A stretch of 64,000 nucleotides of DNA from Rhynchopus sp. YZ270_cl-10 (Eukaryota). The stretch covers positions 124,001 to 188,000 of the forward strand of contig OZ037848.1 in the NCBI GenBank assembly GCA_964035575.1. The letters are read 5' to 3'. Below the pieces are notes generated by a model. It was not told the DNA's origin. It ran no database searches and was given only the letters and a program-made list of their open reading frames with translations. Position 1 is the first letter of the stretch. Every line of letters starts with the position of its first letter. Made by a program: the position numbers and the translations under genes. Shown in pieces: positions 500 through 63,596 of this stretch.

Positions 500-528
500 A
501 GACGAATGTGCCTCTCATGCACACTTCT
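500..528 (-). promoter_or_regulatory. Intergenic GNRA hairpin motif copy
   Basis: Minus: AGAAG-TGTGC-A-T-GAGA-G-GCACA-TT-CGTCT; further copies at 545-573 and 621-639. Confidence 0.65.
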
Positions 529-1127
529 AAAAAAAGACAAAGTTGGATCCTCAGCCTCGAGGTGCTTAGTACCAAAAAAAAGTCGCCAAAAAAAAGAAGA
601 AAAAAAGGGGTGTAAGAGAGGAATGCCTCTCGTGCATACAGCGAACAGCAACGTGTTATTTTTTTTTGCTGCTGGGGGAAGGGGGGTTGGAAGGGGAGGA
701 GGGGTCTGTCCTTTCTCAACAACGTTCGAGATATTTTCACATAAAATGCACAATTGCTCGAAGCAACAGCAAGGAACACAACAACCCATGCTTTCCATTT
801 CACAAAGAAAGCATTGAGAGGGTGAAGACGTGCCTAATGCTCCAAGAACACAAGGGAGAGGGAGAAAATATATTTCAAAAAAAAACGCTACGTTGCCAAC
901 TTGTTTTTGTGTTAAGACAAATTCTGCGTATGACATGGGTAGCGTACCAACACAAAGGTGCCCCCCACCCACTGCACCCTTTCCTCCAACAAAAAAAATT
1001 GGGTGAAAAACGAGAAAAACGCCACATCCATTTCCTTTTCTTTCAATACCACTCCTTGCCCGTCTTTAAAAACCCCGTCAATAGTGTCTGTTGTTGCAGT
1101 TCTTTTTCTCTTTTTTTTCCTATCTTT

Positions 1128-3020
1128 CTATAGACCTGGGCAGATTGCAGGCCCGTAGACACAGTGGTCACACATCACTTCCTCTCCTCTTGTACTGAAG
1201 AGGGAGCACTCTCCTGCAGAAAGCCCGAAGAAGAGACATCCCTTTGTTGCAGCACAAAGCGCCTGGCATGCAGTGTCAGAGTCTGCGTCCTTCTTGTCGA
1301 GCAGGGTTCCTTGCAGAGAGTAGCCGCGGACGAAGCAGTCAAATTCTCCACCAAAGCTGCAGTATTTGGACCCCAGGAAGGGGCCTTCACAGCGCTCCCC
1401 TCCCGGGTGGCTTCCACTCTTCGGGTCGGTGAAGCCCCAGCGCCAGGACAGATCCATTACGGTGTCCTTATCGGCCGCCCATTTGTTGTAGAAGGCAATC
1501 ATGTCTGCCAACGCAGCGGTCTCAGTCGCAGCAAGGTTCACGCTCTCTGTGGGGTCGGCGCTGATGTTGAAAAGCCAGTACCCGTTCAGAGGCTGTGGGA
1601 TCACGTCCCCCTCAGGTTTGAACCCAGAAGGGGGTGCCTGGCGGATGCCCGGGGGGTTGTTCGATTCGAGGCCCTGCTGGTTCTGTCCTTCGACAACCAA
1701 TTTGAAATCTCCCTTTCTCACTGCACCTCCGATAAGACCGAATGTCCCGCATTCTGCGGCTGCTGGGTCGACTGCGGTCATGCATGTAGACGTCGTCCAT
1801 TTGTGTGCTGTCGCATTGAAGACAACAGGCTTCGCAATGACAGGAATGTTGTGAAGGATGAAGTCCCGCTCCGTCGGGGTGTCGTCGGTAATGCACGACC
1901 ATTGGTTGTGTCCATCCAACGGAAGTGTCTTTGCAATGCTACCGCCGGCAACGCCAAGAACCAGGGTGGGGAGCCAGTCGGTCGAGTGCATCAGGAAGTT
2001 GCGCACCTCGTTTGTGGGAACTTTGGCAATGTCGCTGTTGGTCCCGCGGACGAAAGAGACACCACGGATGCCACCTTCCCAGTCAAGCACCTTCATGCCT
2101 CGCAGGGGGTAGTTGTTCCCCGGGCCAATGCCTCCGTTGTCGGCAGTGTAGATCATAAGCGTGTTGTCCCACAGGCCGTGCGTTTTGAACAGCTCAACAG
2201 TCTCCCCCACTGCAATGTCCAACGCCGTCACCATACCACCATACACCTTTCTGCTCTCTGAAGTGACATTCGCGTACGTCACGTTCACATCAATGATAGA
2301 AACCGGCGGCACCTCGTAGGGGTTGTGAACATTCTGGAATGCGAGGTACATGAAGAGGGGCTGCGTGGATGTGCGGGTACGAAGGACACGGGACAACTCA
2401 TTCATGTACAGAGTGGTGGAGTAGATGTCCGAGACGTTCACGCCGCAGTCTGGCGCGACGTTTGGGGAGGTACCGTTGCGCCAGTCCCCAGTGTGGTGGA
2501 AATAGTCCTCTGCCCCAGATAGGTAGCCCGAGTATGAGTTGAAGCCTCGGTAGGTAGGTTCGTAACGCTCATCGCAAGAGCCGAGATGCCATTTCCCAAT
2601 TGCGTGGGTGTCGTACCCTGCATCACGTAGAAGCTCTGGCATGAACGTCTCGCGGGCAGGCACTCCATACGGTTGCCCTGCAACAATCACATCCGGACCA
2701 ATACCAGTGTGCATCGGGTATCTCCCAGTCATGAAGGTGGACCGGGTAGGGCTGCAGAGTGGCTGTACGTAGTATGACTCAAGCTTCACCCCTTCAGCTG
2801 CGAGCTGGTCCAGGACAGGTGTCTCCATGACACCTGCGTCGCCATTGGTCGTAGCAGCGCCAGTAGGGTTGGCGCCGCTGCGAGCGTTCTGGTGGTAGCC
2901 AATGTCGTTCCATCCGAAGTCGTCGCCTACGACGAAGAGGATGTGCGGGAGGTCCTTGGCAGAGGCAGAGGAGAGGCCTGCTAGGGTGCAGGCCACGAGG
3001 GGCAAGAGGTGGTGGTGCAT
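1128..3020 (-). CDS. Secreted arylsulfatase (ARSB/S1 family) with C-terminal PAN/apple-like Cys module
   Basis: FGly motif CSPTRSTFMTG, N-terminal GDDFGWND, GKWHLG and DNGG motifs. A signal peptide follows the internal ATG at 3020 (MHHHLLPLVACTLAGLSSASA), with a candidate AG acceptor just upstream. Tail reads CQALCAATKGC..F..C.L. The ORF-track extension to 3212 is low complexity and probably UTR. Confidence 0.92.
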   Translation of the reverse strand: MHHHLLPLVACTLAGLSSASAKDLPHILFVVGDDFGWNDIGYHQNARSGANPTGAATTNGDAGVMETPVLDQLAAEGVKLESYYVQPLCSPTRSTFMTGRYPMHTGIGPDVIVAGQPYGVPARETFMPELLRDAGYDTHAIGKWHLGSCDERYEPTYRGFNSYSGYLSGAEDYFHHTGDWRNGTSPNVAPDCGVNVSDIYSTTLYMNELSRVLRTRTSTQPLFMYLAFQNVHNPYEVPPVSIIDVNVTYANVTSESRKVYGGMVTALDIAVGETVELFKTHGLWDNTLMIYTADNGGIGPGNNYPLRGMKVLDWEGGIRGVSFVRGTNSDIAKVPTNEVRNFLMHSTDWLPTLVLGVAGGSIAKTLPLDGHNQWSCITDDTPTERDFILHNIPVIAKPVVFNATAHKWTTSTCMTAVDPAAAECGTFGLIGGAVRKGDFKLVVEGQNQQGLESNNPPGIRQAPPSGFKPEGDVIPQPLNGYWLFNISADPTESVNLAATETAALADMIAFYNKWAADKDTVMDLSWRWGFTDPKSGSHPGGERCEGPFLGSKYCSFGGEFDCFVRGYSLQGTLLDKKDADSDTACQALCAATKGCLFFGLSAGECSLFSTRGEEVMCDHCVYGPAICPGL

Positions 3021-3561
3021 TGTGTCTGGAGGGTGTGGTGTGGGAGGGAGGAGGGAGGGAGGTGGGAGGGAGGTGGGGGGTGGAAAAAAAGAGTGGGGGT
3101 TGCAAGTGCTGTTCGTTTGGTGGGACAAAGAGAGTAAAAAAAAATGTGATGGTGCAGCTGACGAAATGTTTTTTTTTTTTTTGAGTATTTTTTGAACCCA
3201 AATTTCAGCCATGTCATGAAAGTGAAAATGACAAAAAGGACATAAAACAAAACTGTTGAAAGCGCAAACGCCTCACCGTACATCGACGTCGGTAGTGAGA
3301 AAAGAGGAAAAAAAAACACGCGGAAGCGGTTTTTGTGCCCAAAAAAATGGGTTCGTTGTGACAAAAAAACTTCCCAGTGTTTGATTCCCCTTCCCTCCCT
3401 GAAAAGGGAGGGAATTTTTGACTGCGTGCAAAAGGAGGGACATGGGAAGACTACACAATGTAAACTGTAAATATGTATGTGCCTCTGCACATAAACACAT
3501 ACAGGTCGTTCAAAAGAAAACAATCCTTTTTAGGCTGCCAGACTTCACTTTCTCAATTCTC

Positions 3562-6483: not shown

Positions 6484-7487
6484 ATTGGAGGAGAGAGGGA
6501 GGGGAACCAATGGAGACCGAGTCACAGAGGGTGTGGTCTACGCTACCATTGGGTGGGTGTGTGGCTGGAGGGGGTGGAGGGAATGTTGAGAGGAGAGTTG
6601 TGTTTTGTACATGAAGACGTAGGGTATAGCTTCGGTATGCCTAGTGTCGCTGGAATTGCAAGAAAGGGGAAATGGTTTTGTTCGTGTTTCTTTTCTTTTT
6701 GTGTCGACAAAATGAAGAGAAAAAAACTGTTTTTCAAAAGGCTTTCGTTGTGGGTCCTGGGACAAAAGAAAAAATGGAGCCCGGGTGAGACACCAAAAAA
6801 AAAAAGAAGAAAAACGTGGAAGGGTGCAGTCTCTCGCACATCCACCAAAAGAAAGAAAGGTTTATCAGATGAATGAAAGCCTCTCTCAGCCACCTGAAGA
6901 AAAGAAGCTTTTTATGAGATGAAACTGAACCGCTTACCTCACCGAAGAAGTCCCCCTCCCCACCCCCCCTGCTCTACTTGCAGGGGTTCACCGTCCCCGT
7001 GTACATTTTGTGTATCGTCTCGATTCGCGGAAGAACACGTACACCGCAAAAGAAACCTTCCCCACCCAAACCTCTTACCCATATCGACTGCATTTTGTGT
7101 ACCCGCACACCCAACCCCACGTACATTTTCCACTTCAGGCAGCCAAGCCGGTCGTGAGTCATACAAGAAAACAAAAAAAGGTGAAGTCGGCAACACACAG
7201 ACACCCCGGATGGAGGTGTGTGCACGTTGCTGAACCTCAATACAATTAAAAAGTTTTTTCAAATCTGTTTGGTTGCCCCGTACAGAGCTAACAGATGCAC
7301 CATTTTCCAATTTATTATCCGTTCGTACCTTGGATGTGCCTTTGTGGCGCTCACACCTTGTGTTACGTTGCAGTTTTTTTGCGGTAATATTCCCCGGAAT
7401 TGCGCAAAAACTGATTTCAAACTAAATCCCGTTATCCCCCCAGAAGAAGGCAGTGGTGTTACCTCCGTCCAGCAGATCCCAACGCTC

Positions 7488-8523: not shown

Positions 8524-8900
8524 AGTGCGTTGTGTTTGTGTGTCGTCCTCTGTGGTTGAGATCAGTGTGTGTTTGATAACTATTTGGGGTAACTCTTGCA
8601 CAGAATATGGTGAGAGTGTATGTGTGTGGGTACTTCCCTGTGCGGAGCATCGCCCGACACAGTCAGGGCGACAAAACTTCAAAATATGCTGGAAGGAGAG
8701 AATCAACGATGTCGTGTTGGTAGGTGTGATGTACACAAATGACATAGTGTGTATTTTTCTACTTTTTTTTTGCATTTTCGTTCAATATTTTTCAACAAAA
8801 ATGAATACTAATCTAGAGCTTCGTGCAGTAGTGTGTCTGTTGTCCTGTGGTGAAGCAGAACCGGAAGATGCGCACACATTTGCAAAAAGAAAAGTTTATA

Positions 8901-8933
8901 AGATGAACCTAAGCCTCTCGCGCTTAGTCACCT
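8901..8933 (-). promoter_or_regulatory. Intergenic GNRA hairpin motif copy (prototype)
   Basis: Minus: AGGTGA-CTAAGC-G-C-GAGA-G-GCTTAG-GT-TCATCT, then TATAAACTTTTCTTTTT. Confidence 0.75.
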
Positions 8934-9676
8934 AAAATTAAAATAAGGTTTGGGTAAACCTTTTGCCGACAGCAAAAAGAAGAGGTCGCTTCTTTTTGTA
9001 TAACTTTCCGACAATAAAACACGCAAAGCAACACCGCACCTAGCAGTAACCGTCCTGCTGAGTCTCATCCTCACATATGACGAGCTAACAAAATTTAATA
9101 AAACTTAAAAGACGGGTGTGCCCTCTCGTGAACATCTAAAGAAAAAGGTCGGCAAGATCTAGCCTAAACCTCACGATTCACGTATTTACTTACACCACCA
9201 AAGCAAAAGGCATCGTAAAAATAGCAAAAAACAAAAACAAACTAAATTGAAAAGATCAAGCGAGAGGCCCTTCAGCATCAACAACAGAATCTTTAACACT
9301 CAATCCCAAATTTTTGTCCAGACTGGGTATTTTTTTAAATAAAGAACAACTATTCAAAACCGTAAAATTCTTGCTTTAATTGATTTTTCTGGTAAAACCT
9401 ATGAACACGCAAAAAAAATCGACCAGATTCGTTGAGTGACTAAAACCCAATCACCCATAGAGAGAGAGACCCAAAACGGTGATTTTCCCTGTAATTCCTT
9501 AAGGAATTGCCTTTGCCATTTGAAAAAATATTATGACCGCAAAAATGGCAACATGTAATCTGTGATGCTCAAAAGTGCAAAATTCTTGCTCCAATGGATT
9601 CTCCGGGTATACATTGTACCTGGAGAATATGCTCATATCACTCTTCAGACCATCTGGGGTATGGTCACACACAGGT

Positions 9677-10056
9677 AGTATACACAGTATACACAGTATA
9701 CACAGTATACACAGTATACACAGTATACACAGTATACACAGTATACACAGTATACACAGTATACACAGTATACACAGTATACACAGTATACACAGTATAC
9801 ACAGTATACACAGTATACACAGTATACACAGTATACACAGTATACACAGTATACACAGTATACACAGTATACACAGTATACACAGTATACACAGTATACA
9901 CAGTATACACAGTATACACAGTATACACAGTATACACAGTATACACAGTATACACAGTATACACAGTATACACAGTATACACAGTATACACAGTATACAC
10001 AGTATACACAGTATACACAGTATACACAGTATACACAGTATACACAGTATACACAG
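9677..10056. repeat. (AGTATACAC)n microsatellite, ~42 copies
   Basis: Perfect 9-bp tandem repeat read directly. Confidence 0.98.
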
Positions 10057-10065
10057 GGGATTGGG

Positions 10066-10393
10066 AGTACAGTACAGTACAGTACAGTACAGTACAGTAC
10101 AGTACAGTACAGTACAGTACAGTACAGTACAGTACAGTACAGTACAGTACAGTACAGTACAGTACAGTACAGTACAGTACAGTACAGTACAGTACAGTAC
10201 AGTACAGTACAGTACAGTACAGTACAGTACAGTACAGTACAGTACAGTACAGTACAGTACAGTACAGTACAGTACAGTACAGTACAGTACAGTACAGTAC
10301 AGTACAGTACAGTACAGTACAGTACAGTACAGTACAGTACAGTACAGTACAGTACAGTACAGTACAGTACAGTACAGTACAGTACAGTACAGT
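10066..10393. repeat. (AGTAC)n microsatellite, ~65 copies
   Basis: Perfect 5-bp tandem repeat, separated from the 9-mer array by GGGATTGGG. Confidence 0.98.
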
Positions 10394-11116: not shown

Positions 11117-11195
11117 CGCTTCGCGGCGAAGGGCAGGCTTAGCCCAGCCCTTAGCCGCGAAGCGACTGGGGGGTCTGGGGGGCGGAGGCCCCCAG
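11117..11195. other. Two adjacent GC-rich hairpins at the left junction of the 406-bp array
   Basis: CGCTTCGCGGC(11117-11127)/GCCGCGAAGCG(11154-11164) with inner AAGGGC/GCCCTT. Then CTGGGGG/CCCCCAG (11175-11195), ending where the array begins. Confidence 0.85.
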
Positions 11196-23593: not shown

Positions 23594-23918
23594 AAAAAAA
23601 AAACGTTAAAAGCAAACCCAAAGAGATAGAACCTTTTATCACCACATCTTTCCCTCCCTCCCTCCCCCCGATCTAATTTATGATATTTTTGTGCTTGCCA
23701 CTGGATGATGCCACTACTGACAGCTCCCCGACAGGACCTTCGGTAACACCAGCATGTTGAAAAGCGATGTTGAGAGTAAAAAAACAAAACAAAAAAATTG
23801 ACTTGAAATACAAAGCCCTCTCGTGATTAGTCACATCTTTTAAATTCAAATTCAATTGAACAATTAACTCACATATCACCCATTCATGCCGTAACAAGGG
23901 AGTATTTTTAAAATCAAA

Positions 23919-36933: not shown

Positions 36934-37040
36934 TTTTGTGTGTTGTTCTGTGTTGGGCGTTTGTATTATCACACAGTGTCGTTATGTGAAGAAAATATGT
37001 ATTTTACAAAGCAATTTTATAAATCCGATCCAAAAAGAAA

Positions 37041-37222
37041 GTTGACTTGAAATACAAAAGACCTCTCGTGAACAGTGTACCTTGGTACAATGACCGGATG
37101 TACCGGGGGGTGGACACCCAACCACGCAGTCCTACAATCCATTTCGTGGTTTACATCTGATATGTTGTTACTCCCGCTTCCACTCATCAGCCAGATGAAC
37201 GGGGATCGTTGCAAACACAGGG
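37041..37222 (-). repeat. Dispersed repeat copy A containing a hammerhead-like core and a hairpin motif
   Basis: Aligns with 60172-60313, with indels. Minus strand reads CTGATGA-GTGG...CCAC-GAAA-TGGA...TCCA. Confidence 0.8.
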
Positions 37223-37581
37223 ACGCTAATCCTGTGTGTTGTAGGGTCGGGAGCACAAACCCTGAGTCGCTAATTTGGGCGGGGAAAAAATCCCCCTCCT
37301 TCTGTATATGGCGTAACTAATTAGTAACCATATTCGCGGACAAAAACTCGGGACGGGGTGTAAAAAAAAAGGGGTGTTTTCAACATTATTTTTTCGTATG
37401 TCGTGAGATATGCATATACTGTGTCTTTTTTTCTTCACGCTATGCCACTACAACATACGGCCGAACATTTTGTCGAACTTATTATTATTTTTTTCAACAG
37501 CACTGCCACACGAAGGAACACATTTTCCCCCCCACCCCGCTCCCGTCCTCAGAAAAAGCGAAACAAAAAGAAAATTTGATA

Positions 37582-37615
37582 AGATGATCCTAAGTCTCGC
37601 GAGACTCAGTCACCT
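37582..37615 (-). promoter_or_regulatory. Intergenic GNRA hairpin motif copy
   Basis: Minus: AGGTGA-CTGAGT-CT-C-GCGA-G-ACTTAG-GA-TCATCT; a second copy with a GGGA loop lies at 37652-37675. Confidence 0.7.
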
Positions 37616-38404
37616 TTGGAACAAAAAAGGGGGGGAAGATTTTTTTTGTACGATGACCTCCCGTTCACAGTCATCTTACACGAATAGAGACACAAATTAA
37701 AAAAGACTCAATGCTTTAGAGGAATATACCCCAGATCACATAAAAACATCTTTCAAATAAAACGTTCAAGATTTTTCAAGATTTCTTTTTGACACATTTT
37801 TTTTTTTGGTAATTTCCACACTTTTTTTGTCTTGATTTTTTTTATCTCTTCCGCTTTTTCTTCATGTGGGTAAATGCCCGGCGTTCAAAAGACGTGATCG
37901 CAAAAAGGAAACTCTTACTTTTATCCAAAAAAATTTTGACAGTGCAAAAAAAATGAAAAACGCGTAGACGCAGGAAGAGCAATTCCTTAAAGGGGGTCCT
38001 AAAACAGAGCACAAAAGCGAAAAGTGGATAGGTGATCCTGAGCTTTGGGCACCTAATATAAACAAAACGTTATAGAATATGAAATGTTCTCCTCACATCA
38101 CAGAGAACAAGGTTGGTCTGGGGTGGGGTACATAAAAGCAAACCAATAAAATGATGAGGACCAGCAGCACTTTTTGACGACTGCCCTAATATTAGTTGTA
38201 ATCGACAATGCATTTGTTACCCTTTTGGGCAGAGCCAAAAAGGGTCTGTACTCGCCGAAGAACCTTTTTTATACGGATTATAGACGTCGTCCGTGGGGGG
38301 TATTTTCCCTCGTTGTAAAACACAAAATCACCTCAGGCATTGGGGTTGGGTGGGGGGACAAAGGATGGAACTAACATTAAATAGCGCGTTAAAAAGCGTT
38401 ATGT

Positions 38405-39973: not shown

Positions 39974-40302
39974 AAAACTTGTAAAATGATACGCCTCAAA
40001 CAAAATGCACAATAAAAAAGATCGGGTTTTTTGGAGGGATGGGGGAAACAGGAAACAAAGAAAAGTTGAAAGTGCAGACACATCACCGTTCATCGGCGGA
40101 CGCAGGTACTGAAAACAAATACGAGTCATGGAAATACGAGGTCATCTTGTAGCACAAAAAAGTTCTTTACACATCGATTCCGTAGCTGCCTTTGACAAAA
40201 CAACAACACCTCACTCTGTCCTGTGTTGTGTCCATTTCAAAAGCAACCGGGTTCAGTGCTGAACTGTATCAGGTACAAAATGCGACAGGGGTCCAAAACA
40301 CA
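39974..40302 (+). repeat. Left copy of a ~300-bp direct repeat flanking the foldback element
   Basis: 40120-40302 is near-identical to 42250-42432; patchy homology extends to 39974 versus 42140. Confidence 0.9.
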
Positions 40303-40314
40303 GGGGGGGGTTAG

Positions 40315-42139: not shown

Positions 42140-42432
42140 AAAACTTGTCAAATGAGTACGCCTCTCGTGCGCACATCTAACAAAATGCACGTCACACCAG
42201 TGGACAAAAAAGGATGGGCTTTTTGAGGGATGGGGAAACAGGAAACAATTACGAGTCATGGAAGTACCGGTTCATCTTGTAGCATAAAAAAGTTCTTTAC
42301 ACATCGATTCCGTAGCTGCCTTTGACAAAACAACAACACCTCACTCTGTCCTGTGTTGTGTCCGTTTCAAAAGCAACCGGGTTCAGTGCTGAACTGTATC
42401 AGGTACAAAATGCGACAGGGATCCAAAACACA
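42140..42432 (+). repeat. Right copy of the ~300-bp direct repeat
   Basis: Matches 39974-40302. Confidence 0.9.
42150..42178 (-). promoter_or_regulatory. Intergenic GNRA hairpin motif copy
   Basis: Minus: AGATG-TGCGC-A-C-GAGA-G-GCGTA-CT-CATTT. Confidence 0.7.
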
Positions 42433-48435: not shown

Positions 48436-48752
48436 TTTTCCACCACCTTCCTTCAACCCTTGTAGGATCAGCTGTTACTTTTTTTCGCGAAAACATGAAA
48501 TTACACATTTCAAGAGAACAAATTAAAAAGGGTCCTTATTTGCATTTTTGGGATCTCGGAATTGGACAATTTTTTGACCACTTAAATTTTGAGAAATATG
48601 AGCCCGGTTCCTTATACGTGGGGCCCATTTTCGGCCAAAATTTTCCTCAAAATCTGATTTTGTAAAATCGACCCTTTACTCCCCCCCAATACTATACCTT
48701 ACTTCACCTTCGGTTACCCTTACAGGGGGGGGTGAAGGAAGGTTGTTGAAAA
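48436..48752. mobile_element. MITE-like element copy 2
   Basis: TTTTCCACCACCTTCCTTCAACCC...GGGTGAAGGAAGGTTGTTGAAAA; direct repeat of copy 1 with two internal deletions. Confidence 0.7.
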
Positions 48753-49879
48753 TCAGTTTTTGCGGAGGGACCAAATGTTGAGGGCCAAATCCTAGCGGAA
48801 GCCCTGATGGGTAAATCTTTTAAAAAGAAAGAAAAAACGCGCAAAAAAAAAAAAAAAAAAAAAAAACCTCTCGGGTCCGTCCTGTGAAACAAGGGGGCAT
48901 GCAAAACCACCCTTTCTTGTTGTGTCGACAGTCGCGCCCATACGAGGGTTCTACTACACTCCAACAATTCTTCAAAAAAGTTTGTAAAACAAACCTAAGC
49001 CGCGACGACAAAACCACCTTATCAAAAGGTTTTCATTTTGTGGGGCCTCAAGAGCACTCTGGGTCGCTTTTGTTTTGGCCAAAAACCTTCACTAAAAAAT
49101 AAAGTTCCAACAACCTCCTGCCGCTAACACTGGGGGTATCATATTGACCACCACAAGACACATTCATTCAAAACTTTTCTGTGAATAAGTTTTTTTTTTC
49201 CCTCGCGTTTTACGTCATTCTCACCAAAAATTCGGGCACACCCTCAGGATACGTTTTCATTTCCTCCCCTACAGCCTTTGCAGTTGTCTCCAAAACGAAA
49301 GTCTCCAAAAAAATGTTGACTTGAAATACAAAGCCCATGATGGTGTCCCAAAAGACCCCCTCCCCATCCCCCTCCCCTCACAGATAGAACAACGGAACGA
49401 TAAATACCAGAACTGATGTTGGGGATTGGCGACCGCATTCTGAGGAGCTATTTCTCCTTTTAAGCATACGTTTGTAGGCATAAAAAAAAAAAGACATCCT
49501 TTCTAACAGAGTCTATCCACCAAGGTCCCCTTTCCACACCCTTAAACCTCCAACAGGAGAGCAACGGCACAGTGCATGACACAGCGCCAGAAACCCACGA
49601 AAGAGACAAAAAAAAAAAAAAATGGGTCAAAAATAGAATTCGTTTACGTATATACTTCCCAGAACCAGACTGAAATGGGCTGATTCCCCCCACCCCCACC
49701 CCAATAGGCTAGCGAATCAACTCCACTAACCGCAGAACCCTAAGGAATGTAGAAGCATCCAAAAAGGGCTCACTATTTTTGTGCTGGCGCGGAACATCTG
49801 AAGAAAAGTTGGTAAAGATGAACATAGGATTTTCAATGCTTTACCGTACACTCAACCTCACCCCAGGTTCAGAACGTTT

Positions 49880-50932: not shown

Positions 50933-51764
50933 GACGAACGACGTTGATTATGGAAGGTGGGCAATAATTAGAGGGAAATGTCGAGTCAAATAATGTGAAA
51001 GTAAAGATGAACCTAAGCCTTTGCGTTTCAAAGGAAAAGAAAAAGAGAAAAAAGTACAATGGGAAGTGCACCTTTTTTATTTGGGGGGGAGGAGGAGGAG
51101 GAGGGGAGGAAAGAGGGGTTTATTGTGCCTCTCACGAGGTCAGCATGTAAAAGAAAAAGAAAAAAAACAAAGAAAATAAGTGTGTGGTGTTGTGTACAGG
51201 GGGGAGGAGGAGGGGAGAGTGCTGTGAATGAATTTGGTAGAGGGGTGTGGGGGGGTGAAAAGATGAAAAGCGCGCACTCAAAAAAGAAGTTAAATGCCCA
51301 TCTGTCAGAGAAAAAAAACTGTGGGTGAAATTATTCACTGAAATAACACTAAAAAAAAAAATGTGGTTCTTTTTTCTGATATGGTTGGAATCGTGGAATC
51401 TGTCCAGAAACAAATACTATCTACAGAACAGAGAGTATCCCTGTGGTATTTTTTTTTTTTTCTTTCTTCTGTCACCTCCGGCTTCATCCCTTGAACAGAA
51501 GCGAGACCAAAGGATCGTTAAGGCCATGCTTTCGCACCGAGGATCGGTACTGAAGATCATGACCCCTTAGGGGAAGAAAGGGGCTTCGGACGACACAAAA
51601 CCTTTCACGGGGTTAGTGGCATTGATTTTTTTTTAAACATAATTTTGCGTCGCGACATCCCCTTCCTCACTCCCCCTCCGGTGGCCCTCCGTCTTTCGAT
51701 TCTCAGAGTTTGCGAAAATCCGAAATTCATCAGATTCTTAGGAGGAGAGGTGATCTCCGTTGCA

Positions 51765-53891: not shown

Positions 53892-54244
53892 TCTGCAAAA
53901 TTAAAAAGAGGGTAAAAAAATGAAGCGGTGAAAAAGGGTTCTGAGGGGGGGAAGTGTTTGGTTCCCCTAGGGTGTGGTGGTGTGTAGGAGGGGGGGAAGA
54001 AAAGAGATTTTGGACAAAACAAATGCCGTCGTTTTTTAATAGGTGGTTTTAATCCCACGGAGTTACCTTCTATGTTGCCTTAAGAAATTCTGTGTTTCCT
54101 TCCCCCGAAAACCCTATGTTAAGTTAGATTTTTTACAGACGAAATCTCCAAACACTCTCTATTTTTCATCAAAATTCGAAATTTTCATGCAGAACGGGGA
54201 TGAGCTCTACTATACTAAACGCTTTTGTTTTAACCCCCCCTATC

Positions 54245-55009
54245 TTATGACACCACAAGCGCACCGATTAAGAAAAGCAGTGTCCCGCACATTGATGAGA
54301 GGAACATCATGAAGTAGGGCATGTTACCTGCTCCTATGGTGGTTCCTGTCCATGGGCAGAAGTGGTCATGCCCACGCACGAAGACCTCACATTCGACACA
54401 CCATGTACAACCGGCAGGACGGTAGGATTGTGATGCGTCGTGTGGTGGCCAGGTTTCGCAGTCGGGTGGCCGTGTTGGGAAGCGCTGTGAAATGCCCGGG
54501 TTGGAATATGCTGTGAGCCAGAAGAGGACCAAGGTCGCCGCCACACCTATTGCACCCAGCACCGTGACCCACCCTGCTGCGTGCCGCGACGCATTGTGCA
54601 GCAGCAGCCCCCCTATACCCGCTATGATCGCGCTTGTCACAAACGGCATCGGCCAGCACGGCCCCGCCACACACTGTCCACGACAACAATGCCTCATCCG
54701 CCCCACCCTCCCCCCAACAGGAAGCATCCCCACAGAAGATGACAACGATCCCCCTTTCCCCCGAGGATACACCAGGGTCCCCCCAGTCACCCCAGGAGGG
54801 GTGAAATGCAGTGGAAGGTGTCGCAGCCGTCTGACGTCCTTTTCGTGCAGGAGATCCACCTCGTTCCCTTGTTCGAGGAGCTCTTCGTCGACTTCGGGTG
54901 GATCTTCAGGATCATTAGGAGGTTGAACCTCAGAAGGGGGTGCCGGGGGTGCCATCTCGATGTCTTCATTGTGTGTTTCATCCGGGTCGTTGGGGCCTTC
55001 TTCCAGCAT
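54245..55009 (-). CDS. DHHC-type palmitoyltransferase-like protein (DHFC variant, short)
   Basis: Two TM helices, SNPG, then C..C...V..HDHFCPWTGTTIG..N..YF, then a third TM helix; likely ATG at 55009. Confidence 0.8.
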   Translation of the reverse strand: MLEEGPNDPDETHNEDIEMAPPAPPSEVQPPNDPEDPPEVDEELLEQGNEVDLLHEKDVRRLRHLPLHFTPPGVTGGTLVYPRGKGGSLSSSVGMLPVGGRVGRMRHCCRGQCVAGPCWPMPFVTSAIIAGIGGLLLHNASRHAAGWVTVLGAIGVAATLVLFWLTAYSNPGISQRFPTRPPDCETWPPHDASQSYRPAGCTWCVECEVFVRGHDHFCPWTGTTIGAGNMPYFMMFLSSMCGTLLFLIGALVVS

Positions 55010-55330
55010 GGTTGTGTTTGTTTGGGGTGCTTTGTTCTCAGGGAGGGGGGGAAATTGCGGATTGGGGGGGATGTGTATACTGTGTGGAGAAAATGAGGGG
55101 AAAGGTTTGATTATCTTCAGCAGGATAGAACAAAAATGGTAGCCCTCTTTTTTGCTCTCGGTTGTAGACTTAGAACAACACAATGCAACACACGTTTTTT
55201 TTTTTCTTCAAAATATAAGCCAAGTTTTCTTTAAAAAATGCAGACAATGTATCAAGCAACATAACAGACAAGCTGGAAAGAGATGAGCCTCAGCCTCTCT
55301 GTGTCTACCTCAAAGAAAAGCTCATAAGTA

Positions 55331-55357
55331 AGATGAATGCCTCACATGCACACATCC
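55331..55357 (-). promoter_or_regulatory. Intergenic GNRA hairpin motif copy
   Basis: Minus: GGATG-TG-TGC-A-T-GTGA-G-GCA-TT-CATCT; a degenerate copy lies at 55281-55310. Confidence 0.65.
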
Positions 55358-55588
55358 TTTCAAAGTGAACGCTCAAAAGCGCTTCCCCCCCCCTTCCCCA
55401 AGGCCCCTTGGTACCGACGTTGCGAAGCTTTATGTCTGTGTGGGAAAAAAGGGAAAATTAATACGCATCCACTTGCCGTTTGGATAAAGAACAACAAAGA
55501 CGAAAGGGGGTTTGAGGGGGAAGAGTTTAATTCTTGAACGCATCACACTCAGTCTCACAACTCAGGGGGAAAAAAAGTTGGCAAAATA

Positions 55589-57827
55589 TTAGATTGAAAT
55601 TGTTGGGTAGTTTGGTGTATTGCTTCCTGGTATGAATACATCTTCACGACATTTGTCGCATTCACGCAATAATCCATGCAAAAAGTTAGATTCACATACT
55701 TTCAGTTCCCAGAATTGAAAGTATTTGAGGGTCAACAAAAAGTTGAAAAAAAAATGTTTTTTCGTGCATACCATCAGCTCATCTCCATCAGACCCCCCCA
55801 AGTCAGATGTCGGTAACAGTGCTTCGCCGTCCTTGAAGCTGGACGGTGTCATCGGCATGCCCTGAGAAGTGAAGTTGAAAGAAAAATCGGCAAAAAAATG
55901 ACGTACCATTCCCCCTGTTGCCAATGACTTTGCCACTTTATACTGCAGCAGACTGTGCGGGCCGATGCCGATGCCTGAGTTGTTGAACACTGCGTGGATG
56001 TTCATGTTCCCCCTAGACAGCACTGCGGGTGCAGAGCACACCCCCATGAAGTCTGCCTCGAAGGAATCTTGGTCGGTCTCCTGCCCGTCAAAGACTCTGT
56101 CGGTTGGTGTTGCGCCTCTGCTTCCATTTCCTATGATTCCAGTGATGTGGCTTATGCCACCTGGAATCGACTCTGCCAACAGGCGAATCGCCTCAAGCTT
56201 CTCAGTAGGGTTCGACACATCAGAGAGGTATTGATGCCCGCTGTTGCTCTGGTTCCCAGATGCACCCACAACACCGCAGCCCACGTCTGTGTTGCGTTCG
56301 ATCGCTGCAACCTCGGGAGGTGCGTCGTCACCAGAGTCCTCTTCCCCACAGACAACTCTGCACGTCGCAGCCATCCCCCCATTGTGAATGAGGTTTTCCA
56401 TATTGCGAAGTGCCTGCTGCTGCTTTTCCGGCGTTATGTCATTCAATGTGTACCATTCCTCAGCAATCGGACGGTGCAGATGTGTCAAAATCTTTGAGAA
56501 TTCATCCCCAGAGTCGAGCTGTTCTTCACTAAGATATGTCAGCGCGCGCACCTTCGGGAGAAGCACCGCAAGCTGCTCTGAGGCGACCCTCCTCAACAGA
56601 TCCCGCCACGCACTGAAATCCTCGAGCTCATCCAATGTCATATCTGACACCTTTTTCGAGAATGCGTCGACCAACGAACCATACTTCTCTATCAAAGCGA
56701 CGTGCCGATTGACCACTTCACTCGGCACCAACAGAGTTGACCCAGGAAGCAGTGCATACGAAATCGACTCCACCTTGGAATACAACAAATCCAAAGCAAG
56801 CTGCGCACTTTCATCAAACCACACCGGAAGCCCCTGCATCTTCTCCTTCACCACCGTCGCCTGCGCCGTATTCGCAAATTGAACCAACGCCTGCACCCGA
56901 TTCTTCGCCGACTTTTTAGGAAGCACAATAACAGCTTCCACTGCACCATACGGAGCAAAGAGCTGATAGATGAGCCGGGCAGACACATAAATGCATTCGG
57001 TGATGCGGTGCGAGGAGTCGAAGAGGGATGCGAGCAGGGTTTTGGTGGCTTCGGGGGCCACCCACTTCTGGTGTTTGCAGAAGCCTACTGTGGCGGGGTG
57101 TGTGCCGATGTCGATGAGCGCGTTGTGGTGTGTGGTATAGTGTTCCACCATGCGCACCGCGTCTTCCAGGCGCGTGAACTCAATCAATGCGTGGTTCTTC
57201 GAGCGCAGCATGATAACCCGCTCGACCGTGCCAAAGCGTGCCCCCAGGTCCTGCAGAAGCCCAAGCGTAGCCTCCCACGACACCCGCCGCAGCAGCACAA
57301 TGCGTGACGCAGGGTACTGCGGGATCGACGCCTGCTCGGCACGCCGCTTTGCCCCCTCCTCCCGCAGGCTTGCTGCAGAGGCACCACCCCTCTCAAGGGA
57401 GGGTGCGCTGCCGTGGCTGTCGCCAGAAGAGGTGCGGTGCACGGCTTGGGGGTGTGGGTGTGGGGCGAGCTGCTGGGGTAGGCTTTGGTGTTGGTTTTGG
57501 TGTTGTGGTTGGTTCTGGTGGTTTGGGTGTTGTTTTGGTTTCTGCGGCTGCTGTGGGTGTTGCTGCCTGTACCCCATCCGGGAGTGAGCCTGCGCCTCAG
57601 GAAGCAGTGCAGGCAGCGTGGCGGGTGGAAGAGGCAGTGGCTGTGGCACTGCTGCGACCGGCACCATGTTGGGTGCACCCTTGCGGGCGTTGTGTCTGGT
57701 GTTTGTGTCGCGGTGCTGCTGGTGTTGGTGCTGGTGCTGGTGTGGGTGTGGGTGTTGTGTGTGCGATGTGTAGTGCTGCTGCTGCTGGTGGTACTGTTGA
57801 TGCTGCTGCTGGTGTTGGTGGTAATGG

Positions 57828-57858
<31 letters not shown>

Positions 57859-58090
57859 GCTGCTGCTGCTGATGCTGCTGCTGCTGTCTATAAGGATACT
57901 GCACCGCCGGATGTGTCGGCGCAGTTGTGTACTGTGCCTGCTGCACCTCTACAGGCACCACCGTGCCTGCATCCCCCTTCTGCCCCTTGTGGCCACCCTT
58001 CCCATAGCCTTTTCTCCCCTCCTTAAACCCCTTCGGTGCTGCGCCCTTCCGCTGGTGCGACCCACCCTTTGTGTCAAAGCCGTCCCCCAT
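55589..58090 (-). CDS. PTB/hnRNP-L-like RRM protein with Q/H-rich N-terminus; 3' exon structure uncertain
   Basis: Two PTB-type RRMs (SRIVLLRRV...KNHALIEF; LFAPYGAV...VQALVQF). Likely in-frame intron 55862-55906 and another donor (GTATGC) at 55771 whose acceptor is not resolved. Confidence 0.8.
57776..57886 (-). repeat. CAG/CAA trinucleotide runs encoding poly-Q
   Basis: (TGC)n/(TGT)n on the + strand inside the RRM gene. Confidence 0.9.
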
Positions 58091-58741
58091 TTTGTTTTGT
58101 TATATCACACCATAGCGTCTGGCCTGTGGGTTGTGAAAAAATCTTAGCATACACTCTCTGTTGATTCGCTAAAACGGGGGAGGGTAAAAAATTGCGAAAG
58201 GTAAATTGGAGAGGTTGAAAAGAACGCTTCCTCACCCCTCAGATCACACCATGCCCTCCAAGGAACCCCTCTAAGATAGCAGTGTTCATACACACCAATA
58301 AGGGGCACCTGTATTGGTAGTGAAGCTGCACCGTGCCTATGCCGCTTGGATGCGGCACTGTTCCTCTTCTATTCTACTAACAAGCGGTCCCAAGTGGCAG
58401 CTGTTAATTGTGATGAGGAAAATATAGGTTAGAGGTAGTGGGGGGTTTGACATTGATATTGTGAAGTATGTTTTTTGAAGAACGGAGGCTTTTGTCTTCT
58501 AACGTTGCGACAGTCGCGTGGGAGAAAGTCTCCGCACATCTCATTGTTTTGTGGAAACAAAAGTTGAGTTGTAAAAATTGCGTTTTGGCGTCGAAAGTAT
58601 GTTAGGCGTAAATAACGGTCATTTTCAGGAATCCCAGAAATGCCCCCATACCCACCCACCCCCTGGTTTTCAACAATGTCGGGAGTGTCTGTGGGCACAC
58701 AACACATCCACGCACACATCGGACTCTGTCCTAAGCTGCCT

Positions 58742-59980
58742 TTAGGTTGCGGAATGTTCACGCTTTCCGCTCCCTTTTCGCAAACTTTGCATCTCAAACT
58801 TCAACACGACCTGTGAGGATGGGAACACATTCTTTCCCCCCATTGGCACGACCGTGCCGTGCGAGCGCCATGGCCCTGAGGCTGCGACAGACGCGCTGCT
58901 TGGGCGCCGCAGCACACTTCCTACACCTCCACCTCCACCCTCCAGCACACCTTCCACATCCCTCCTCCGCAGCGCGCGCTTCTTGTACCCCTTTATCTTT
59001 TCCAACCGTGCACCGCCGCCTTCATCGGCTGCACGCAGCTCATCAACACCCTCCCCACCCACCCGCACATTCTGCATCATATCCACAAACTGCTTCGCAC
59101 TCCACTCCCCTCTGTAGTACGACGTGGGCGCAGTAGCATGCTCCGCACGCGACAGAGGCTCCACGGCATGGCTGTGTGTCAAATCCATTGACAGCGTGCG
59201 GCGTATCTTGGGAGCGGGGGCAGGCGGTGGCACCCGTAATTCCTCTTGGCTGTTTCTGGGCGGAATCATTTGGCTACCCCGCACCTCGGTGTTCAGGCTG
59301 GATTGCCCTGTATTCCGTACTTCATTGCTTTTCGCTGATGGATTCACCCTCGTCGCTTCCTCCAGAGGTGCAGGTAGGCGCGATGTTTTATCAGCAGCAG
59401 TAGGGGAAGTGTGCGGTGCAGTGTGCGTCTCCTCAAGCAACCCATGCTGCAGGGCAGAGGATATGATTGCAATGTCCTTCTTGATACGCAGTGTCATGGC
59501 TTGCACCGCATCTTTCAACCCAATTTTGCTGATTTTGAACTGTTTTATTGTCTCCGAGACCAACGAAGTGATGCAGCCCAATGAAGAACGGTGCACAGCC
59601 TCTAGGTTCGCATCGCGGGCACGCATCCGATACTGGAGAAGCTCTTCTGTTCGAAGGTGGTACTGCTGTTGGAGCAGTGCGTGCTCCTTCTCGAGAGCAT
59701 GCAGGCGGGTGGAAACAGCGGTGTTTGCCTCCTCCAGTTCGCGTATGAGGGAAGCGTTCGCGGCGGACATAAGCTGTGCCGCATCGACCCCTACCTGGGA
59801 CGCAGGCTGCGACAGCAGAGAAGCAGCGTGCAACGGTGACGGCACCTCACCTTCGCACTGCACGTAGCCTTCGTACGCACCGTACGAAGAGGCGGCAAGA
59901 GACGAGTGCGTTGTGGTGGCACTGCGCTTGCGAACTGTAGTGAGTCTGCGGTGTGCAGGGTGGTCATGGTGTTCTCGCAT
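58742..59980 (-). CDS. Hypothetical coiled-coil protein
   Basis: 412-aa ORF, co-directional with neighbours; heptad segment LIRELEEAN...LLQYRMR. Confidence 0.65.
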   Translation of the reverse strand: MREHHDHPAHRRLTTVRKRSATTTHSSLAASSYGAYEGYVQCEGEVPSPLHAASLLSQPASQVGVDAAQLMSAANASLIRELEEANTAVSTRLHALEKEHALLQQQYHLRTEELLQYRMRARDANLEAVHRSSLGCITSLVSETIKQFKISKIGLKDAVQAMTLRIKKDIAIISSALQHGLLEETHTAPHTSPTAADKTSRLPAPLEEATRVNPSAKSNEVRNTGQSSLNTEVRGSQMIPPRNSQEELRVPPPAPAPKIRRTLSMDLTHSHAVEPLSRAEHATAPTSYYRGEWSAKQFVDMMQNVRVGGEGVDELRAADEGGGARLEKIKGYKKRALRRRDVEGVLEGGGGGVGSVLRRPSSASVAASGPWRSHGTVVPMGGKNVFPSSQVVLKFEMQSLRKGSGKREHSAT

Positions 59981-60171
59981 TTGTTATGAGAAGGGAGGAG
60001 ACAGAGAGATAGAGATATGTGAATGGAGTAACGATTGGAGCAAAAATTGTGGGGGTGAAAATGGAGGAGGAGGGTTGTGGGATGTTATATCTGTGAGATG
60101 TTGGTAACATTTGGGGTGTGTGTGTGTGTAAGGGGGGAGCAAAAAATTCACAGAAAACGCAAGAAAAAAAA

Positions 60172-60313
60172 GTTTACTTGAAATACAAATCCCTCTCGTG
60201 ACAGTGTCCGATGGACACCCAACCATGCAGTCCTACATCCATTTCGTTCTGATATGTGCTACTCCCGCTTCCACTCATCAGTCAGATGAACCGGGATCAT
60301 TGCAAACACAGGG
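60172..60313 (-). repeat. Dispersed repeat copy B containing a hammerhead-like core and a hairpin motif
   Basis: Aligns with 37041-37222; CTGATGA at 60275-60281 and GAAA at 60242-60245 on the minus strand. Confidence 0.8.
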
Positions 60314-60942
60314 GGAAAAAAAACGCTGTCTGGTGTGGGGGGAGGAGATGGTGAGAGAAGAAAAAAAAAGGGGGAGTAAAGAGGTACTTTTATAGAGAGT
60401 TATGCTTCTGCTACAAATGCGGGCAGCACCATGACTTTGTGAGATACATATTTTTTTTTTTTGTTCGCTTTTTATTGTGACTCACTTTTAAAGGGGATTT
60501 AGACCCCTTGACAACCCCCCCTCCCTCCCTCCTGCACCATAGTCCCAAATATTCCTTTCAGAGACCATGTTCCAGAACAAATGGAACCATATTTTATTGA
60601 AAAAACAATTCTTTCTCTGAAGAAACCCCAAAATAATCCCCAAAGAAATAAAATAAAAAAAGATAAAAAATAATGTGTGACAGTATCCTTGCTATGCACA
60701 CATCTGAATAGAGTTGACTGACTTTTCGGGGAGAAGAGAACAAATGAAAAAAAAAAAAACAGGGCGCTTTCGTTTTTGCAGCTCACACCAGGTTTTTCGC
60801 TGTGTTCTTTCCCCTGAAGTCGAGTGCGTGTGGAAAAAAAAAACAACAACAACAACAAAACAAAACTGTCAGTGGGCACTGACCGGTCCGGTTCTATGTC
60901 CTAATGTAAATAAGTTGACAAAAATAAAGGGAAGCCTAGCAA

Positions 60943-60972
60943 AGATGAATGTGACTTTCGTGCACACACATC
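60943..60972 (-). promoter_or_regulatory. Intergenic GNRA hairpin motif copy
   Basis: Minus: GATG-TG-TGTG-CA-C-GAAA-G-T-CACA-TT-CATCT. Confidence 0.65.
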
Positions 60973-62659
60973 GAATAATGTTGACTTGAAATACAAAGCC
61001 TTCTTGTGGCAGTGTACCAAAAGAAAAAGTTGGGAAGGTGAACCTTGAGGCACTCACATCACTTAGTCACCCCTAACACGACTGACAAAAAAATGCAAAA
61101 TATGTCCGTTCAGCTTGATTAGATCTCGACAGTTGTTGCATTGCACGCTTGGGGTGTCTGATCTATCTGTGTGGCGGTTTTATTCATTCCCCCTAACACG
61201 CCATGGTTGGTCAGTACCTGCCTCTCAAGCAAAAAAAGAAGAAAAAAAAAAAACAAACGTGCTTCTAGCGCACCCACATCATATCACTTTAAAAATATGC
61301 TACATTTTCACAAAAAAAAAATGCTCTGGATGTATCGTTGTCTGTAGGGTAAAAGTATGGTATTTTGGTAGTATCTACAGTCAAACTCATTGAGGAAGGG
61401 TTTCCCTTTCGGTACACACAAAATCACATGAAGGTTAATTTTGAATGTACTTTTCAGTTCAGGAGAAAGCAAACTGGAAGAATAGGCTTCTCATGCCCAA
61501 TAGTAGCGAAGGTGGCACCGCAGCGCTTTTTGTTCTGCCTCTTAAAAATAAAAGCCAAAAGAGAGAAAAGGAGTTAGTACGATGATCTTAAGCTTCGGTA
61601 CTGCTTAAGTCATCAAACAAACAAAAATCAACAACTCTAACAACTGCGAAGCCTTTTACAATATACTACACATTTTTTTGGTTTTCGATCAGTGTTATCA
61701 AGAATGATGCTACATCGGGGTGAAGACATCATCCTAAAGTAAATAATAAAACAAGGGAGCTACGCAGGAAATTTTCCCAAAAAATAAAGTAAAAGAGAGT
61801 CAGTGGGTGTTCATTTACCCTCAAATACCCCAAATAAAAAACACCAAAGGTGCTGCGAAATAGCGGGGGGAGGGAGGAGGGGTCAGGAACACGAGAGAAC
61901 TAAAAGTGAAGGGTGAAAAAGAAGAGAAAAAAAAATACCTATTGCAAAGGAGAGTTGGTGAGCCTCGCGTGATTTGTCATAAAAAAAAACAGGAGAAACT
62001 TGAAAGATGGGTGAGTACACATACACATCTGTCTCGCTTGGTCACCTTAAAAAAAGAGTAGTTGAAATGTGCTAAAAGTTTAAAAACGCATCTCAGCCGA
62101 GATCATGCAAAATATAAAGCTGAACGATGAATATGCCTCACGTACATACTAATACACATCTGAAAAAAAATAACGAAAACCCATGAAGCGCTTCAAAATG
62201 ACTCAAAATATACAGCAAAAAAAAAAAAACACTTCTCTATTTGGCAGCAGGCCCCCCTTGGTTACCCACGGGGTTGATCGAACTTTGCAAGAGCGCACAT
62301 TTTTTTCCTGATTTTTCCCAGAAAAGAAGAAGTCAGTATTGCAATGTTAGAACTTCAACATAACGCCTCTTTTCCACAAAAAAAACCAAAGCATTGCTAC
62401 GATCTTTTTTTTTGCCCTGCAACCTCAAAAAAAAAAATTCTATTTTTTGAAAAACTTGGTTGTATTAGCGAAGACACCCTAGAGTGTGCTCCACTACATT
62501 TTTTATCGAACAGTCTGGGTTCTTTGTATGTAGCGCCCTGAGGTACCTTTTTGATATCCGTATTTTGGCCCAGAAAAATGGGTGAGTTGTGCTACGGGGA
62601 GGTTTCTATCCATTCAGAAGCAAATATTTCGAGAGGGGAAAAATAAAGAAAAGTTTATA

Positions 62660-62692
62660 AGATGATCCTAAGCCTCTCGTGCTTAGTCACCT
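62660..62692 (-). promoter_or_regulatory. Intergenic GNRA hairpin motif copy
   Basis: Minus: AGGTGA-CTAAGC-A-C-GAGA-G-GCTTAG-GA-TCATCT-TATAAACTTTTCTTT; matches the 8886-8933 copy at 46 of 48 nt. Confidence 0.75.
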
Positions 62693-63596
62693 TAGTTAAA
62701 TAAAAACGCCGGTGTCGCGCTTTTTTACCCTGTTCTGACCGCCCCTAGAGGCACATAATACACTGCTCCCAGTTTTTTTCCCCCTCAACCACAGGTACCC
62801 AACGAGGAGGGTTGTGGGGGAAACTAGGGATTGGTCTTCTAATGCATGACTAGGAGGGGTGTCTACACAACTACAAGATTTTCAGAGAAAAATACAACAA
62901 AAAAAAAAACAAAAAAATAAACCAACGCTGTGCGAATGAACTGAACTGAACACACAAAAAATTTATATAAACTAAACTCCACACAGCTTGGAGACCAAAC
63001 TACTTAAAAAAAAACGCATACTTTGTGAACGGAAAGCTTCCCGCTCACCACTGCTTTCCGCTAAAACTACCACCCCACAGTGTGGAGGTAGTGTGGAAGC
63101 ATCAACGCATCAAACAATAGATATGAGGAAACGGCAAACACTTTGGTGCTGGTAAACAAGGTGGATAGCGTGAGAGCAGAGCCGGCCAGAGTGACAGATC
63201 CTTTCGTCATATTCGAGCATGACAATGGACCTGTCAATCAACGCACGTTTGAACGAAACATAAAACCCCATCACCATGCCACCCTAATCATCATTGTCAA
63301 CACCCCCTCACTTCCACCTGCAAAAACTCCTTCCCTCTTATCCCTCTCGCACCTCAGAGGAGAAGATCTCCTACAGACGAAACAGTTAAAAAAGGGGGAA
63401 AATAAACCTAAAGCCTCACCGCCTCGCGTCACCTAGAAAAAGAAAACACATCTAAGAACTCCAAAAAGGGAAAATAAACCCCGATTTGCCCCCCTTTTTC
63501 AAAAAAAAAACCCCCAGAATCTAATTATAACCCCTTTTTTCACCTCAATTTCTGTCAAAGTTTCAACTCGGTTTTATCTTGTATCATTCCAACTAT

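Follow-up and report, generated by a model that had tools for sequence, protein, structure and literature searches.

The question raised by a 64-kb stretch of contig OZ037848.1 of Rhynchopus sp. YZ270_cl-10 (assembly GCA_964035575.1, positions 124,001 to 188,000; hereafter the window) is why the spacers between its genes so often carry the same small hairpin. A preliminary description, made from the letters alone, had taken the hairpin to be a protein-bound RNA signal for trans-splicing, polyadenylation or mRNA stability. The hairpin repeat family is real, and it appears to be previously undescribed. All long open reading frames (ORFs) of the window lie on the minus strand and carry short GT-AG introns, and a protein with an asparagine-synthetase domain has its best named relative in Diplonema papillatum; based on this relative and on the single-strand ORFs, we place the window, at clade level only, as a diplonemid co-directional cluster.

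The repeat unit spans ∼47 nt on the gene strand, and consists of the hairpin followed by a conserved tail of ∼14 nt (TATAAACTTTTC-like) that ends in a U-run. The structure proposed earlier for a motif of ∼28-36 nt with a GNRA hairpin stands, but the unit is longer by its tail, and few copies are fully GNRA. Two subfamilies, A1 and A2, share one architecture: the hairpin has a 2-nt 3′ bulge, a bulged purine and, at its apex, Y-GNRA-G, and the tail comes after it; the A1 stems are 6+6 bp (inner CUAAGC/GCUUAG) and the A2 stems are 5+5 bp (inner UGUGC/GCACA). A third form of the hairpin makes up the end of a ∼200-bp repeat, called B, and has the same ACGAGAG apex and the tail TTTCAAGTCAAC. Repeat B is represented by two long copies and three end-only copies with a common 3′ end, and by one hybrid with an A1-like 5′ arm (23788-23838). 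The tails of A2 and B differ from that of A1.

Covariance models for A1 and A2, each trained on six copies and used with a cut-off of E ≤ 5, gave 17 and 18 matches in the window, of which none was in real coding sequence (CDS), in line with the earlier description, and none in satellites. Since 34 of the 35 matches were on the minus (gene) strand, the earlier claim that the motif always points with the genes holds for strand, although orientation with the genes and location on the minus strand are inseparable in a window where every gene is on one strand. All 16 copies that had been listed are present, and the models recovered 15 of them (10 used in training and 5 of the 6 held out, with 37652 missed). 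The eight sites previously called degenerate gave a mixed outcome: two served in training, 49816, 62005 and 63400 were found, and 35305, 51005 and 61955 were missed, with 51005 and 61955 kept by eye and 35305 dropped. Four copies (6902, 39974, 60658 and 61470) are additional to the earlier list. The control was 586 kb of unrelated metagenome loci searched with default filters (80 loci from a protein-led metagenome scan, best-segment identity 27-57%, none recognisably diplonemid), where the two models scored at most 17.6 and 16.1 bits; because the control ceiling is 17.6 bits, single window matches below ∼17 bits are individually not significant. The curated set used below comprises 34 copies, several of them chosen by eye, and excludes 35305, which had no model match, and the weak matches at 48846, 60156, 9087, 9249, 55570, 23597 and 8721 (plus strand).

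A strict descriptor, which demands a bulged R, Y-GNRA-G and two stems, had four sense-strand matches in spacers, compared with 0.14 expected (maximum of 2 in 200 shuffles), and elsewhere one antisense spacer match and two CDS matches. Because just four sense-strand spacer copies match, the complete GNRA architecture describes the consensus and is present in full in few individual copies, and since the lone closing pair of the apex is also marginal in several folds, the stems are better supported than the apex. The hairpin had not been recognised as a known family, and Rfam agrees, with no matches at the gathering threshold in the 64 kb and, at E ≤ 10 over 32400-64000, seven matches of which none is on the hairpin motif. 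Exact-pattern scans for A1 in JGI metagenomes, A1 and A2 in IMG/VR and A1 in GTDB genomes were empty. No description of the element was found in the literature; the available main text of PMC10161547 has no occurrence of 'hairpin' or 'stem-loop', and the available part of PMC12621601 none of 'hairpin' or 'stem', while the D. papillatum repeat/untranslated region (UTR) supplement of the former and the supplements of the latter, which fell outside this search, may bear on novelty.

Pairing is kept above chance on one strand, while many copies decay. Among 101 changed pairs in a sequence-only alignment, 26 were Watson-Crick, 28 G-U, 8 A-C and 39 other (G-U vs. A-C, p = 0.001), with part of the 26 Watson-Crick changes arising because the sequence taken as A2 reference is a variant too. 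When 18 outer and 12 inner stems were put in register by hand, the 167 cells comprised 132 Watson-Crick, 26 G-U, 0 A-C and 9 other, and when the consensus G-U column was removed, G-U still numbered 19 against 0 A-C. Folding favors the gene strand in 20 of 25 copies, and unpaired positions have no bias toward G/T (7 vs. 13). Double changes within a subfamily are found at 37582, 61581, 42150, 62126 and 3472. Model-fitted pair counts exceeded all or nearly all of 500 shuffles per measure, but they lean toward structure and include weak matches, and are not relied on here. The covariation that had been listed is partly a contrast between two subfamilies, rather than 16 independent events, and 47 of the 101 changed pairs are broken; what survives of that claim is that pairing is retained in a strand-specific manner. 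We infer that the pairing strand acts as RNA rather than as single-stranded DNA.

Contigs of four sequencing runs (X2, X3, X4, and X5), out of five runs listed and none on record as RNA, were aligned to 48900-64000, and all evidence from the runs is confined to that span. Runs X2, X3, and X4 are DNA-like, with similar depth across genes, and X2 passes through introns. In X2, depth reached 246,790 in the bin with 62646-62693, compared with ∼95 in unique sequence, and at positions 62693 and 62694, respectively, 197 and 96 contigs departed into flanking sequence that was unrelated, giving a sharp 5′ edge, while the 3′ edge was ragged and spread over 62639-62647 within the T-run. No variant at 10% or more was listed within this unit in the run contigs, and head-to-tail joints (62694 to 62645, period 50) were present in all four runs. 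A model that allows for short-contig overlap in three runs brackets the near-identical A1 copies at ∼600-26,000, which is a modelled range and not a count. The identity of A1 across stems that are replaceable in other copies needs copying, and a binding site alone is insufficient to explain it. The diverged, compensated copies at 61566 and 62115 lie within an unbroken DNA contig, and therefore share no 31-mer with other loci. Many copies directly follow the T-run of another copy. The preliminary description had named a neutrally decaying transposon among the findings that would overturn its reading, and the repeat comes close to one, being a high-copy dispersed family with near-identical young members that had not been seen earlier.

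The 34 curated copies are distributed over 18.3 kb of spacer (∼1.9 per kb), and 10 of the 14 spacers are occupied, where the earlier description had spoken of most spacers. Copy count rises with spacer length (rho 0.76, p = 0.0015), and a uniform rate fits (chi2 14.8, 13 degrees of freedom). Flanks of copies are 41-43% T, with 43% T in the 30 nt upstream. Run X5 behaves as though spliced: its records stop at the GT donors 50024 and 55906, and the 90-nt exon 55861-55772 would account for an 89-letter overhang. Another X5 overhang, of 15 letters, adjoins the AG at 53968-53967 and is probably the leader, and an X5 contig ends near 54046; the junction between this putative leader site and 3′ end (53967-54046) is without a copy. 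X5 contigs cover at least 10 copies (51004, 55267, 55321, 61022, 61470, 61566, 61945, 61995, 62115, and, in part, 63388), and presumably copy 49801 as well. Through the cluster from 63407 to 60989, X5 depth was 8.0, 8.8, and 13.7 going downstream, whereas the next gene had 2-3; a long 3′ UTR would be expected to look this way, and the 3.6-kb spacer at 59981-63596 appears to be largely one such UTR with 13 copies. The RNA/DNA depth ratio was 0.46 in the A1 bin, whereas 13 unique bins had a median of 0.18. A putative kinase leader site at 51221 would place copies 51004 and 51120 in a 5′ UTR. Judging from this one RNA-like run, the copies probably reside in mRNA UTRs.

The explanation that we consider best, at about even chances, is that the ∼47-nt dispersed repeat is a miniature non-autonomous retroelement in T-rich spacers and UTRs, with some copies co-opted as a protein-binding hairpin that affects mRNA fate. 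A putative reverse transcriptase would recognise the hairpin apex, and the U-rich 3′ end of the RNA would anneal to the A-rich strand of nicked DNA and prime there; the gene strand of spacer DNA being T-rich, this would fix the orientation of insertion. On this view, repeat B would ride along as a longer passenger equipped with the same 3′ signal, its end-only copies having been truncated at the 5′ end. Recognition of the hairpin combined with U-rich priming would yield a sharp 5′ edge, a ragged 3′ edge, polarity, insertion beside older copies, and the series of truncated B units. That locus-specific copies keep their pairing suggests that some were co-opted as UTR hairpins, and these may have the role in mRNA stability or protein binding that was read earlier from the sequence.

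Several observations weigh against the retroelement reading. There was no target-site duplication in 18 copies tested (the longest flank match was 7 nt, of low complexity), which speaks against classic target-primed insertion; the copies have no poly(A) tail, and neither an autonomous partner nor an empty site was seen within the window. The 47 broken pairs indicate that copies decay, paralogue 39974-39996 has lost half of its hairpin, and the position-level contrast between paired and unpaired sites is not significant (p = 0.14). Hand registers and copies picked by eye favor pairing, and G-T pairs fit single-stranded DNA too. X5 is not on record as RNA, and its RNA nature is deduced from its spliced behavior; contigs cannot map RNA ends, and their depth is a poor measure of expression. 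A more ambitious version, in which the 47-nt hairpin is among the smallest active eukaryotic mobile units and also a genome-wide UTR control element, with a protein-binding site copied to thousands of mRNAs as a eukaryotic REP counterpart with three stem designs and one apex, seems doubtful to us.

The rival that survives best, although unlikely, is a purely selfish miniature element, whose hairpin serves its own mobilization, whose covariation arose among source copies, and whose copies, once inserted, decay neutrally and are without function in the mRNA. The homogeneity of the young A1 family, a density that follows spacer length, the broken pairs together with the half-deleted paralogue, and the fact that much of the covariation divides subfamilies are all in its favor, but it is at odds with the excess of G-U over A-C in diverged copies and with compensated variants that, judged by 31-mers, appear confined to their own locus.

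We regard as improbable a eukaryotic counterpart of REP, in which a single-stranded DNA hairpin would be copied by an HUH-type transposase (Helitron Rep or Y1) into the gene strand displaced during transcription. The family matches REP (21-65 bp), as given in the available part of PMC3184786, in its size, in having an imperfect stem-loop, in lying in spacers and in being clustered; the lack of target-site duplication and the head-to-tail joints agree with such copying, and Helitron-like ORFs are present in D. papillatum according to the part of PMC10161547 at hand. In contrast, there is no fixed 5′ tetranucleotide and flanks vary, neighboring copies are direct rather than inverted, repeat B shows a 5′-truncation pattern with a common 3′ end, and the window has no transposase.

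There is similarly little likelihood of a role in trans-splicing or polyadenylation, in which the repeat would signal processing and its tail would serve as a branch-point-like word with a U-tract. The tail does resemble a branch site followed by pyrimidines (TACTAAC in 61566), a pyrimidine run and AG precede many copies, a similar word, AACUAAA, stands ahead of the pyrimidine tract that lies downstream of VSG genes in T. brucei according to the available part of bioRxiv 2026.10.18.760011, and SIRE is described in the passages covered of PMC11957388 as often providing poly(A) sites. However, 4 of the 14 spacers have no copy and one has 13, the putative leader site at 53966 and the 3′ end near 54046 are without one, and X5 depth does not drop across ∼nine copies from 63435 to 61022. 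The loose ends of X5 at the AG edge are A-rich, like those of the DNA runs, and are not a common leader, and the acceptors used in the window are C/A-rich. With the 53967-54046 junction empty and the number of copies following the length of the spacer, it is unlikely that the repeat acts gene by gene as a trans-splicing or polyadenylation signal, and the earlier processing-signal reading is not supported in that form.

Least probable are retro-copies of a small structured RNA gene, possibly part of U2 small nuclear RNA, made by polymerase III and ending in a U-run, for which the sharp 5′ edge and the U-run can be cited, as can an A1 tail that starts with TTATAA (in 62646-62675) and presumably has further likeness to U2 in the flanking bases. 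TTATAA is the Leishmania major U2 branch-point recognition sequence in the available part of PMC4950102. Against this origin, a 141-base search gave no Rfam match to U2, U6 or tRNA at E ≤ 10, ARAGORN found none, and the tails of A2 and B differ. Group II intron domain 5, SECIS, kink-turn, C/D box, H/ACA RNA and a tRNA D-arm origin were rejected by eye against their usual definitions, as was the sarcin-ricin loop, which has 8 apex letters in common and a different stem.

Compared with known elements, as far as the available parts of the cited papers describe them, the hairpin element behaves in the manner of SIDER and SIRE, and its size and layout recall REP, but it fails the defining features of each. 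Leishmania SIDER1 and SIDER2, at ∼550 bp, carry a signature of 79 bp at the 5′ end, an A-rich tail and vestiges of 11-19-bp duplications, and are extinct (at least 12% diverged) (PMC2323293). Like the element here, SIDER is euglenozoan, high-copy, non-coding and found in UTRs of polycistronic genes, and it exemplifies how an entire repeat family can be co-opted to control mRNA (PMC2323293). Its T-rich upstream flank is also present here, and its UTR residence is matched through the X5 contigs of 48900-64000, where UTR status is itself deduced. The present unit is set apart by its length of ∼47 nt, which is the ground on which the 79-bp signature is taken to be lacking, and by a U/T-run on the folded strand instead of an A-rich 3′ tail, by the lack of duplications in 18 copies, and by near-identical young copies.

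SIRE of T. cruzi is part of VIPER, measures ∼435 bp, has 1,500-3,000 copies and is tied to a tyrosine-recombinase element (PMC6681497, PMC11957388). It is likewise high-copy, non-autonomous and typically located in 3′ UTRs, and no single-hairpin unit is described for it in the passages covered (PMC6681497, PMC11957388). While SIRE often supplies poly(A) sites (PMC11957388), RNA contigs here, which cannot map ends, pass through copies. Bacterial REP/BIME are imperfect stem-loops of 21-65 bp, present in hundreds of copies, confined to spacers, clustered, and affecting mRNA stability (PMC3184786). The size, imperfect stem-loop, many copies, spacer location and clusters are found here too, but the host is eukaryotic, the clusters are direct, polarity is strict and there is a U-run tail; GTAG and RAYT were not seen, with no transposase among the 11 window proteins scanned.

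In stringent pairs of short and long interspersed elements (SINEs and LINEs), the sharing of a 3′ stem-loop that Kajikawa and Okada reportedly described in 2002, a 3′-terminal hairpin and short tail are said to be common to long and short elements, with 5′-truncated copies, as here. The element here is far shorter, lacks a tRNA- or 7SL-derived head and has no LINE partner in the window, where its 3′ end is shared only with the non-coding repeat B. SINEs made by polymerase III have a head derived from tRNA, 7SL or 5S with A and B boxes; ARAGORN found 0 genes and there was no such Rfam match. A miniature inverted-repeat transposable element was rejected on the 5-6-bp outer stem with G-T pairs, the one-sided tail beyond the stem and the lack of duplication. 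Helitron/HINE termini are 5′ TC and 3′ CTRR, and this class was also rejected, as the units start AGG/AGA and end in a CTTTT-type run. Repeat B (37030-37222, 60164-60313) contains the hammerhead-like words CTGATGA, which may be a hairpin arm, and GAAA with a 7-nt complementary pair, but by eye it has no complete standard hammerhead core; it has no Rfam match, folds with z = -0.24, and its copies are not tandem.

Because diplonemid genes are transcribed in long co-directional clusters, their control is expected to be post-transcriptional, and the literature searched, which did not extend to the D. papillatum repeat/UTR supplement, describes no UTR element for diplonemids. The hairpin family offers a defined, reporter-testable 47-nt target at the spacer density found in the window. 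It is about a tenth of the size of SIDER or SIRE and, unlike SIDER, appears recently amplified, so that co-option could be observed while under way, and the mobilization of so small a unit without target-site duplication is relevant to transposon biology.

Table 1. Copies of the hairpin element and of repeat B in the window.
Form	Coordinates	Strand	Features and detection
A1 majority form; outer 6-bp, 2-nt 3′ bulge, inner 6-bp, bulged A, C-GAGA-G, U-run tail	62646..62693	-	62.8 bits (training); z=-5.4 sense vs -2.6 antisense; pile-up, sharp edge 62692-62694
A1	8887..8934	-	2 differences over 48 nt vs 62646-62693
A1, GCGA loop, top pair compensated C-G to U-A	37568..37616	-	model match
A1, extra U-A pair, non-GNRA loop	61566..61615	-	tail TACTAAC + pyrimidines; within unbroken DNA contig
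A1 diverged, outer stem mainly G-U	48974..49020	-	model match
A1 diverged, head-to-tail after 55321-55357	55267..55313	-	model match
A1 diverged	63388..63435	-	19.5 bits, held out
A1 diverged	6853..6896	-	19.1 bits, held out
A1 weak remnant, immediately upstream of 6853-6896, new	6902..6945	-	10.4 bits, under control ceiling
A1 diverged, B-end directly after	61022..61073	-	18.9 bits
A1 diverged, just past kinase ORF stop	49801..49864	-	16.1 bits; probably inside RNA contig X5 record 25
A1 diverged, head-to-tail before 490-528	529..573	-	14.9 bits
A1-like, inner 3′ arm deleted	37640..37676	-	by eye; no model match
A1 3′ half only, in putative kinase 5′ UTR	51004..51021	-	by eye; inside X5 record 25
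A1 5′ arm adjoining A2 copy 61995-62030	62031..62049	-	by eye
A2, 5-bp outer + 5-bp inner UGUGC/GCACA, same apex	490..528	-	training
A2, inner UGCGC/GCGUA	42140..42178	-	model match
A2, GAAA loop, straight after B-end	60933..60973	-	model match
A2, GUGA loop, putative RRM-gene 3′ UTR	55321..55357	-	model match
A2	9100..9138	-	model match
A2, outer stem decayed	605..643	-	model match
A2, inner UAUGU/GCAUA + insertion	62115..62161	-	19.1 bits, held out
A2, outer pair compensated G-C to U-A	3461..3502	-	18.8 bits, held out
A2, apex lost	61995..62030	-	18.7 bits
A2 diverged, new	60658..60705	-	16.7 bits
A2 diverged apex, new	61470..61499	-	15.8 bits
A2 paralogue of 42140-42178, 5′ arm + loop lost, new	39974..39996	-	model match
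Diverged, GCGA loop	61945..61985	-	by eye
Apex-like hairpin, GUGA loop, weak	51120..51145	-	by eye
Repeat B long copy, ∼200 bp, closing with ACGAGAG-apex hairpin	37030..37222	-	sequence comparison
Repeat B second long copy, 87% over 112 nt	60164..60313	-	high-copy in run contigs
Repeat B 3′ end only	60974..61024	-	sequence comparison
Repeat B 3′ end only	49306..49355	-	sequence comparison
Hybrid: A1-like 5′ arm + B 3′ arm and tail	23788..23838	-	sequence comparison, by eye

The neighboring genes are functionally unrelated, a point in favor of spread by copying, and encode a sulfatase, an ankyrin-polycystin channel, an M28 peptidase, a kinase, and DHHC and RRM proteins, and 4 of the 11 window proteins had no assignment in a protein domain scan. 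Ankyrin repeats and the polycystin channel domain are joined in one protein of 2,846 amino acids (23919-32459). The listed ends of two ORFs are not the true protein ends, as the kinase ORF (49880-50932) reads through the intron at 50024-49974, and the RRM-gene ORF (55589-58090) reads through introns with donors at 55906 and 55771.

Other repeats are also present in the window. A 406-bp tandem satellite occupies 11195-23593 (30.5 copies, 100% identity), and a 53-bp piece of its unit is found again at 37309-37361. Beside the satellite, perfect microsatellites of period 9 and period 5 adjoin each other at 9677-10393 and create two spurious ORFs. A near-perfect palindrome (98%) of 1.6 kb at 40350-41936 is flanked by a direct duplication of ∼190 bp (42243-42432, 40113-40302), and looks like a fold-back insertion. 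A direct repeat of ∼350 bp, 85% identical between 47809-48162 and 48436-48752, is without the hairpin motif. Additional short high-copy repeats, detected as depth peaks or contig breaks, are located at 62444-62504, 51491-51520, 55490-55515, and 58160-58210, and the bin holding the first of these has the highest RNA/DNA depth ratio (0.72).

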